Shown: piece after piece, positions 3,068-3,412 of the stretch
Layout of the letters: each line of letters opens with the position of its first letter
Position numbering within the stretch: the stretch's first letter is position 1
NCBI GenBank assembly: GCA_964509325.1
Contig: CAZDYM010000001.1
Coordinates: 1-34,162 of the forward strand
From: an uncultured Phycisphaeraceae bacterium
GTDB lineage: Bacteria; Planctomycetota; Phycisphaerae; Phycisphaerales; UBA1924
DNA: 34,162 nt
Reading direction: 5' to 3'
The notes under the pieces: model-generated
What the model was told of the DNA's origin: nothing
What the model saw: only the letters and a program-made list of their open reading frames with translations
The model's database searches: none
Made by a program: the position numbers and the translations under genes

Positions 3068-3412
3068 TCAGCCGCGCATGTTGCGGATGGAGTTGACGCG
3101 GGTGTCGTGCTCGGTCTTGGAGATATTGGAAAGGGTCTGGAAGCGGGCGGAGCGCTGCTGGATCTGATCTTGGAGCTGCAGGAGCTGCATCTGCTGGGCG
3201 AAGCCGCCGCCGCCGAGGCCGCCAAGGGCGCCGAAACCCCCTAGGCCGCCGCCGCCCATGAAGCTGCTGGCGATCCCGGCGATCCCGCCGATGACCGAGC
3301 CAAGGTCGGCACCGCCGCCCGAGTTCAGCGGGGGGGCGGGCGGGATCGGGGTGGAATAGGTGGTGACGGGCTGGGCGGTGGTGTTCGAGTTGATCACGGA
3401 GGGGCCGGACAT
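3068..3412 (-). CDS. sctF: T3SS needle-subunit-like protein (SctF family C-terminus) with an atypical glycine-rich N-terminal half
   Basis: I chose the internal ATG at 3412 (MSGPSVINSN...) because AAGGAG lies 7 nt upstream; the track ORF extends to 3505. The C-terminus ...RFQTLSNISKTEHDTRVNSIRNMRG matches the needle pattern SN..K...D.......N.R position for position (PrgI: SNTVKVFKDIDAAIIQNFR). The gene occupies the yscF position. Confidence 0.75.
   Translation of the reverse strand: MSGPSVINSNTTAQPVTTYSTPIPPAPPLNSGGGADLGSVIGGIAGIASSFMGGGGLGGFGALGGLGGGGFAQQMQLLQLQDQIQQRSARFQTLSNISKTEHDTRVNSIRNMRG

Follow-up and report, generated by a model that had tools for sequence, protein, structure and literature searches.

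A glycine-rich candidate needle subunit and its unannotated protein family in a divergent type III secretion locus of an uncultured Phycisphaeraceae bacterium

We analysed a stretch of 34,162 nucleotides from an uncultured Phycisphaeraceae bacterium (contig CAZDYM010000001.1 of assembly GCA_964509325.1), referred to below as the window, which carries type III secretion system (T3SS) genes. The subject of this work is a small gene on the minus strand (3068-3412, stop codon included) that lies at the position of the needle gene sctF and that we call the F-like gene. Its open reading frame (ORF) runs from an ATG at 3410-3412 to a TGA stop at 3068-3070 and encodes 114 amino acids. This agrees with the translation quoted in the original prediction for this DNA, including the segment TPIPPAPPLNS, the glycine-rich stretch and the C-terminal QQMQLL...RNMRG. 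Inspection of the sequence shows the Shine-Dalgarno motif AAGGAG (3420-3425, minus strand) 7 nt upstream of the ATG, and the GC content at third codon positions is 0.84 in a window of 68% GC. An orthologue, P0006 from locus L003, is 65% identical to the F-like protein over its full length and, because its alignment begins at Met1, the start codon given here is the correct one.

The F-like protein lacks cysteine and can be divided into three parts. Residues 1-31 (3320-3412, minus strand) form an uncharged N-terminus rich in Ser, Thr, Asn and Pro, modelled as coil with a predicted local distance difference test score (pLDDT) of 62-74; by its composition, this part is a putative type III export signal. 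In residues 32-71 (3200-3319, minus strand) 20 of the 40 positions are Gly, and a small-residue motif, G38xxxG42xxxG46, is followed by tripeptide repeats of the form [L/F]GG. Residues 72-114 (3071-3199, minus strand) make up a Gln-rich amphipathic C-terminal helix module of needle type, recognised from the AlphaFold2 model, its fixed length in relatives and profile alignment. The share of Gly reaches 30% across the N-terminal half, compared with 2-4% in seven canonical needle subunits, and the longest uncharged run comprises 45 residues, compared with 9-14 in the same seven proteins. Nei-Gojobori ratios of nonsynonymous to synonymous substitution (dN/dS) against P0006 are 0.27 overall, 0.39 for residues 1-31, 0.25 for residues 32-71 and 0.20 for residues 72-114. 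These values are rough, coming from one sequence pair with dS near 1, and they point to purifying selection on all three parts of the protein, the glycine-rich part included.

The genes around the F-like gene are transcribed in the order E-like, F-like, tetratricopeptide repeat (TPR; G-like), H-like, SctI-like and SctJ; pscE-F-G-H-I-J is the gene order of Ysc-type systems. The gene at the sctE position (3522-3794, minus strand) is assigned by position and encodes a small protein of 90 amino acids, whose sole Pfam match, YopR, is insignificant (E 0.23). A small gene occupies the same place in four of the other loci that we compared, which are given here by L numbers (L001, L002, L003, and L010), and from its position the product may be a co-chaperone. 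At the sctG position, the window encodes a 162-amino-acid TPR protein (2525-3013, minus strand) with TPR matches in Pfam and NCBIfam matches to SctY (1.3e-9), LcrH and CdsG, all below cut-off. A profile of this protein searched against the PDB returned generic TPR proteins only and did not distinguish between SctG, SctY and LcrH. The TPR gene is the immediate downstream neighbour of the F-like gene in L001, L002, L003, L005, L006, L008, L010, and L014, and its product is a candidate chaperone of the F-like C-terminal helix. The 128-amino-acid protein at the sctH position (2142-2528, minus strand) has no family match and is conserved as a neighbour in other loci, its C-terminus ...DPQL..LF..L recurring in L002, L006, L008, L013, and L016. 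It is encoded at 10523-10945 in L013 and at 14259-14642 in L016, and accompanies the F-like gene even in L013, where the pair stands as an orphan. The 144-amino-acid SctI-like inner-rod protein (1676-2110, minus strand) has a weak match to PF17001 at its C-terminus (E 0.007), and its terminal ...ELASKVVEHG...LQTQ is conserved in six loci. SctJ, the inner-membrane ring lipoprotein (734-1627, minus strand), is clearly recognised by PF01514 (5.5e-19) and TIGR02544 (1.9e-31).

The plus strand of the window encodes a 438-amino-acid protein, a protein with a DUF1521 domain (6839-7789), two proteins without family matches and the export gate SctV (10414-12546; PF00771, 2.7e-192). Among the matches listed, the nearest relatives of SctV come from metagenome-assembled genomes (MAGs) of Planctomycetota/Phycisphaerales, with 43-50% identity, followed by Acidobacteriota (Edaphobacter modestus and others) and Eisenbacteria. 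The most likely source of the window on this evidence is a planctomycete without closely related sequenced genomes. No Myxococcus SctV was found among the 120 SctV matches listed.

DNA-pattern scans using strict back-translated patterns found one locus in genomes and five in metagenomes. The F-like gene lies at the sctF position in the window and in nine other loci, and this synteny bears out the position originally assigned to it. The order F-like, TPR, H-like, SctI-like and SctJ recurs in L001, L002 (a Planctomycetota MAG), L003/L004, L006, L008, and L010, and in L003/L004 the operon runs on downstream through sctK, L, N, O, Q, a FliO-like gene, R, S, and T. Locus L016, which was chosen by its SctV independently of the F-like protein, has a family member of 120 amino acids, whose gene stands immediately upstream of those for the H-like and I-like proteins and SctJ. 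Edaphobacter modestus (L005) encodes a divergent member of 199 amino acids, which is followed by a TPR gene and adjoins sctV. The same locus encodes, after a TPR gene and just upstream of sctV, an 80-amino-acid protein with a glycine-rich N-terminus (9653-9895; MGIGGILSGLGSILNSGGGN...AIQAII), which the family hidden Markov model (HMM) does not match.

A word-indexed homologue search with the F-like protein alone gave three hits and only two relatives, both combining a glycine-rich front with the C-terminus SNISKTEHxxRMxxVRNM, and the same type of search with a profile gave 20 matches. We then searched a profile of three sequences, the F-like protein and these two relatives, exhaustively against 1.84 billion cluster representatives with HMMER. 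At E ≤ 1e-3 the search gave 478 clusters, of which 39 pass E ≤ 1e-10; almost all of the 478 have lengths of 85-135 amino acids. In 149 of the 150 matches listed, the alignment reaches the C-terminus of the relative itself. The family was largely overlooked by the word-indexed search and revealed only by the exhaustive one. Its hosts are Planctomycetota, Acidobacteriota and metagenomes, and every relative for which a source gives a name is labelled "hypothetical protein." The F-like protein is therefore a member of a large unannotated family and not an oddity of one locus, a point that the original prediction had missed. Third-position GC content, the orthologue, the dN/dS values and the 478 clusters confirm that its ORF is a genuine gene rather than a chance reading frame.

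An alignment of 128 of the HMMER relatives shows how the family is built. The C-terminal module has a fixed length of 42-44 residues and the consensus LLxxQxxxQxxxQxFxxxSNIxKxxHExRMxAVRNxR; the protein from the window matches the HMM of this module at E 3.5e-23, ending at its C-terminus. The N-terminal halves vary between 40 and 102 residues, have nearly no conserved columns and low charge, and consist of Gly, Ala and Ser to a median of 42%. At least 25% Gly is present in the 35 residues before the helix in 72 of the 128 relatives, and the F-like protein, with 49%, marks the family maximum. The glycine-rich character of the N-terminal half is thus shared by relatives. Many relatives have a short amphipathic segment (G-x-D-F-x-x-x-L...) ahead of the glycine-rich stretch; this segment may be what is left of a first helix, one that takes shape only when the subunits assemble. 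One metagenomic protein of 870 amino acids, P0118, is very acidic and contains three internal copies of the module instead of one terminal copy.

The AlphaFold2 monomer model, built on the 128-sequence alignment, has a predicted template modelling score of 0.38 and contains a 45-residue C-terminal helix (residues 69-113) at a pLDDT of 89-97. In the N-terminal half, only a short helix of 12 residues (38-49, pLDDT ~50) is predicted, with coil elsewhere. The description of the front half as glycine-rich in place of the usual first helix is in agreement with this model, which shows no confident first helix, and with the sequence, which has no PxxP turn. Foldseek searches with the model gave zero matches because the model consists of a single helix.

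Scans of the 128 relatives against curated families gave scattered, weak contacts with needle models. T3SS_needle_F (PF09392) was the Pfam family most often touched (11 of 128, best 7.5e-4), four relatives were weakly matched by TIGR02105 (SctF; best 8.3e-5), four by the NCBIfam HrpA model (best 3.4e-5) and one by PF09589. Sequence searches of solved structures, with the single protein and with the three-sequence profile, returned noise from Gly linkers and low-complexity regions, and no needles, filament proteins or tip proteins. For profile-profile comparison, we used an alignment of seven canonical needle sequences, each of which was verified as PF09392 at 58-101 bits. Aligned with hhalign, the family and the canonical needles match with 80% probability (E 1.4e-5, score 31.1) over 45 columns. 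Family columns 66-110 pair with needle columns 34-78 of 78, i.e., from the turn of the needle to its last residue, and the terminal N-M-R of the family falls on the N-F-R of the needles. The reversed needle alignment scored 8.3 and 40 column shuffles scored 9.6 on average and 15.2 at most. The match to the local SctI-like proteins was weaker than that to SctF (23% over 26 columns). These alignments make the C-terminal helix a distant yet specific relative of the helix through which needles polymerise. Membership among the HrpA pilins was rejected: against the Pseudomonas syringae HrpA sequence, which PF09589 recognises with 163 bits, hhalign gave 0.5% and a score of 12.6, inside the range of the shuffles. 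An HMM of the canonical needles found no sctF in the window or in any of 16 other loci; its weak touch in the window was on the DUF1521 protein (E 0.02).

This second protein (plus strand; PF07481, 5.7e-12) carries a GDPH motif in its DUF1521 domain. DUF1521 is the Ca2+-inducible self-cleaving (metal-ion-inducible autocleavage, MIIA) domain of the T3SS substrates NopE1 and VIC_001052 (PMC6506597). The protein resembles NopE1/NopE2 and VIC_001052 in having DUF1521 with GDPH and differs from them, in the window as well as in L003, L011, and L012, by the fusion of this domain to a C-terminal hairpin of needle type and by its location among core T3SS genes. The ~75 residues at its C-terminus (7562-7783) are predicted to fold as a needle-like helix-turn-helix with the same C-terminal module, and a weak PF09392 match over residues 251-310 spans both helices. 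Comparison with the F-like family (hhalign 94.7%, E 6e-8; BLASTP 38% over 37 amino acids) supports the earlier claim that the two proteins share their C-terminal helix. A single-sequence AlphaFold2 run, poor outside the C-terminal hairpin, predicts a helix at residues 242-267, a TDP turn and a second helix at residues 271-315 with pLDDT values of 70-96. The original prediction further held that neither protein has a canonical N-terminal half; this stands for the F-like protein, for which no first helix is predicted, but not for the helix-TDP-helix of the fusion. Foldseek returned nothing significant for the low-confidence fusion model. Orthologous fusions lie beside sctU/sctV in the Planctomycetota-type T3SS loci L003 (2116-3039), L011 (2310-3176), and L012 (8996-9814), and the GDPH motif is invariant among them. 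L016 instead encodes, upstream of sctV, a Pro-rich protein of 157 amino acids (7367-7840) that has no DUF1521 and ends in a helix-turn-helix with the C-terminal module (E 3.7e-13). The DUF1521 hairpin proteins may serve as a tip or cap that cleaves itself. Within the locus, the C-terminal helix is common to the F-like protein, to the DUF1521 fusion and, weakly, to the SctI-like protein.

Taking gene position, family and helix homology together, we put the probability at roughly 60% that the F-like protein is the SctF-equivalent axial subunit, of needle or pilus type, of a divergent clade of mostly environmental T3SSs. This type of T3SS is typical of Planctomycetota and also present in Acidobacteriota and uncultured bacteria, and the F-like family is best read as a widespread subfamily of T3SS axial subunits that had no name before. 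In such a system, the uncharged Ser/Thr/Pro-rich N-terminus would provide the export signal. The amphipathic C-terminal helix would be held in the cytoplasm by the neighbouring TPR protein, partnered by the small protein of the E position, mirroring PscE-PscF-PscG and YscE-YscF-YscG. After passage through the SctRSTUV gate, the subunits would stack on the SctI-like rod via the conserved 43-residue C-terminal helix, which would form the inner wall of the tube. The Gly/Ala/Ser-rich half would replace the usual outer helix, either as a compact layer of small residues or as a flexible outer coat. As with Hrp pilins, this half is the part that varies and presumably the one exposed at the surface. 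The DUF1521 fusion, ending in a complete hairpin, may dock via the same helix as a second axial component, i.e., a tip, cap or extension.

Compared with canonical SctF proteins (PrgI, MxiH, YscF, PscF, EscF, SsaG; PF09392, TIGR02105), the F-like protein is likewise small and free of Cys, has a C-terminal amphipathic helix of ~45 residues that aligns end to end, and is encoded between the E-position gene and the TPR gene at the G position, upstream of sctI and sctJ. It differs from them in length (114 compared with 70-90 amino acids), in the lack of a PxxP turn, of a confident first helix and of any match above cut-off, and in its variable, Gly-rich N-terminal half. Hrp pilins (HrpA of Pseudomonas syringae and Erwinia, HrpE of Xanthomonas, HrpY of Ralstonia) are proteins of ~100-115 amino acids in which the N-terminal half varies and the C-terminal region, which serves polymerisation, is conserved. 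Abby and Rocha (PMC3459982) note traits common to HrpA and SctF. The F-like family has the same combination of a variable N-terminal half and a conserved C-terminal module; this resemblance is architectural only, as the family has no detectable homology to P. syringae HrpA, is Gly-rich and is hosted by Planctomycetota and Acidobacteriota rather than by plant-pathogenic Proteobacteria. With harpins (Hpa1/HpaG, HrpN, HrpZ), the F-like protein shares its Gly-rich, Cys-free composition and its origin from a T3SS locus; harpins, however, have neither a needle-type C-terminal helix nor the sctF position, and no homology to them was detected. The sharing of an axial C-terminal helix by several proteins of one locus recalls the needle-extending filament proteins EspA, SseB and Bsp22, the tip proteins SipD, IpaD and LcrV, and flagellar axial proteins, where rod, hook, junction and cap proteins show the same pattern of shared terminal helices. 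No sequence match between the F-like protein and any of these was found. Literature searches returned no paper on a glycine-rich SctF or on needles of Planctomycetes or Acidobacteria.

Several results weigh against an SctF-equivalent role. The F-like protein has no Pfam match at E ≤ 1 and no match to TIGR02105, and its best NCBIfam match, the HrpA pilin model NF053530 (E 0.02), reaches 15.3 bits compared with a cut-off of 34. Nor do any of the listed E-values of the 128 relatives point to a match above the cut-off of a curated needle model. Hence, the "textbook needle helix" of the original prediction holds as remote needle homology from end to end but not as textbook, since the protein lies below all curated cut-offs and its likeness to needles is visible only in profile-profile comparison. 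The helix-PxxP-helix hairpin is not predicted in the monomer, where the junction reads GGGGFAQQ; such a monomer model is blind to folding on assembly. The more canonical hairpin is predicted for the DUF1521 fusion. The module also terminates unrelated longer proteins and occurs three times inside P0118. In L013, the family member and its H-like partner neighbour ribosomal genes, T3SS genes being absent from the surrounding 10 kb, and in L014, a 312-amino-acid member and a TPR gene have no T3SS genes in range. Such unrelated carriers, and pairs found outside T3SS surroundings, would also be compatible with a tag for docking or chaperone binding. Finally, Pfam detected no secretin (SctC) in the window, L002, L003, L005, L011, L012, L015, or L016, and no locus is complete; as no secretin was seen in these incomplete fetched stretches, an extracellular needle is not assured.

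The hairpin paralogues raise the possibility, which we regard as improbable, that the glycine-rich protein is an accessory axial part (an EspA/SseB-like extension or sheath, a tip or an adaptor) and that the true needle is a hairpin paralogue, i.e., the DUF1521 fusion or the 157-amino-acid protein of L016. The predicted helix-TDP-helix (pLDDT 70-96), the PF09392 match across both helices and the fact that the fusion is the sole ORF in the window touched by the canonical-needle HMM all favour this arrangement, as does the recurrence of a hairpin-type paralogue near sctU/sctV in L003, L011, L012, and L016. However, the large and varied N-terminal domains of the paralogues (DUF1521, Pro-rich) resemble those of a tip or cap rather than of a major subunit, and their genes lie outside the E-F-G-H-I-J operon. 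Every locus has the glycine-rich protein, and not the paralogue, at the sctF position beside the TPR gene, and the module of the glycine-rich protein is far better conserved (E 1e-17 to 1e-25, compared with 1e-3 to 1e-8).

We give still less credence to the idea that the C-terminal helix is mainly a shared tag for chaperone binding, export or docking and that the glycine-rich protein is a secreted, non-polymerising, membrane-active factor, such as a glycine-zipper or harpin-like translocator. The attachment of the module to unrelated N-terminal domains and its repetition within P0118 are what such a tag would produce, and pairs of a member with a TPR or H-like gene do occur away from T3SS genes. 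The G38xxxG42xxxG46 motif, the 45-residue uncharged run and the Gly-rich, Cys-free composition are harpin-like, and the window yielded no translocators recognisable as SctB/SctE. On the other hand, the best mean Kyte-Doolittle hydropathy over 19 residues is 1.32 for the F-like protein, below the transmembrane threshold of 1.6, and has a median of 1.17 across the family, where 11 of 128 members reach the threshold. The N-terminal half is also unconserved in sequence, while the match of the helix to needle helices is specific and extends from one end to the other. Chaperone-bound C-terminal helices are a hallmark of axial proteins (PscG-PscF, FliS-FliC, FlgN-FlgK), while chaperone-binding regions of effectors are normally N-terminal. 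An annotation artefact, with a downstream start yielding an ordinary needle of ~80 amino acids or a glycine-rich stretch of lineage-specific noise, might be suspected from the internal Met52 and Met75 and from the spurious Gly/Ala/Pro-rich frames common in high-GC DNA, but we reject it given the strong Shine-Dalgarno sequence before Met1, the alignment of the orthologue from Met1, the fact that a start at Met52 or Met75 would still give no hairpin, the dN/dS of 0.25 in the glycine-rich part and the Gly/Ala/Ser-rich N-terminal halves of 40-100 residues kept by relatives of many lineages.

If the F-like protein is indeed an SctF equivalent, it bears on systems that have been described as lacking a needle. 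Needle subunits serve as markers for the detection and classification of T3SSs, and their apparent absence has backed the idea of needle-less, non-injecting systems, particularly in Myxococcales. Abby and Rocha regarded SctF as so well conserved that it would be detected wherever it exists, and concluded that basal Myxococcales systems have lost it (PMC3459982). The Myxococcus xanthus system was still termed "needleless" in 2025 (PMC12075869). The F-like family shows that a needle-position protein can escape SctF profiles, and standard searches would wrongly label T3SSs that carry it as needle-less. A bolder proposal, which we consider rather unlikely, is that this family is the "missing" needle of T3SSs scored as needle-less, possibly including the basal secretin-less systems of Myxococcales, and that it builds a new kind of filament in which a tube of single C-terminal helices is enclosed by a glycine-rich layer, of glycine-zipper or polyglycine-II-like type, beneath a Ca2+-triggered, self-cleaving DUF1521 tip. 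Recognising the family of ~480 clusters would alter the annotation of environmental T3SSs and offer a concrete candidate for "needle-less" systems. It also raises the structural question of whether a needle can form with a glycine-rich segment in place of the outer helix. Edaphobacter modestus, a publicly named carrier, may provide an experimental entry point.

The loci contain further genes of interest. In L003 (14460-14975), L005 (5270-5653), and L016 (21583-22101), sctQ and sctR are separated by a FliO-like gene (PF04347). To our knowledge, injectisomes normally lack FliO, and its presence in non-flagellar T3SS loci hints at an early-branching system. In the window, sctV is flanked by genes for a sigma factor of the sigma-70 family, for FHA proteins, for a Ser/Thr kinase and for an FHA-GAF-PP2C phosphatase (12550-17677). 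Similar regulatory genes flank the related loci L005 (13597-22178), L012 (16267-17801), and L015 (20585-22121), and the SctQ protein of E. modestus itself has an FHA domain. This neighbourhood suggests phospho-regulation of the T3SS. Two plus-strand genes of the window precede sctV. One (7939-8604) encodes a 221-amino-acid protein without family matches, whose C-terminal third is Gly/Ala-rich and hydrophobic. The other (8672-10177), just upstream of sctV, encodes a 501-amino-acid protein, likewise without family matches, whose amphipathic repeat (KLKKAFKKIGGAFKKGFTKLGGAMKKIGGAIKKGLRKIGKF) is rich in Lys; a membrane-active substrate is one possible role for it. Further along the plus strand, a TpsB/ShlB-like transporter gene (17788-20652) is followed by an ORF of more than 4487 codons (20700-34162) that runs off the end of the window. 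The N-terminal two-partner-secretion domain of its product marks it as a giant two-partner-secretion exoprotein encoded beside the T3SS.

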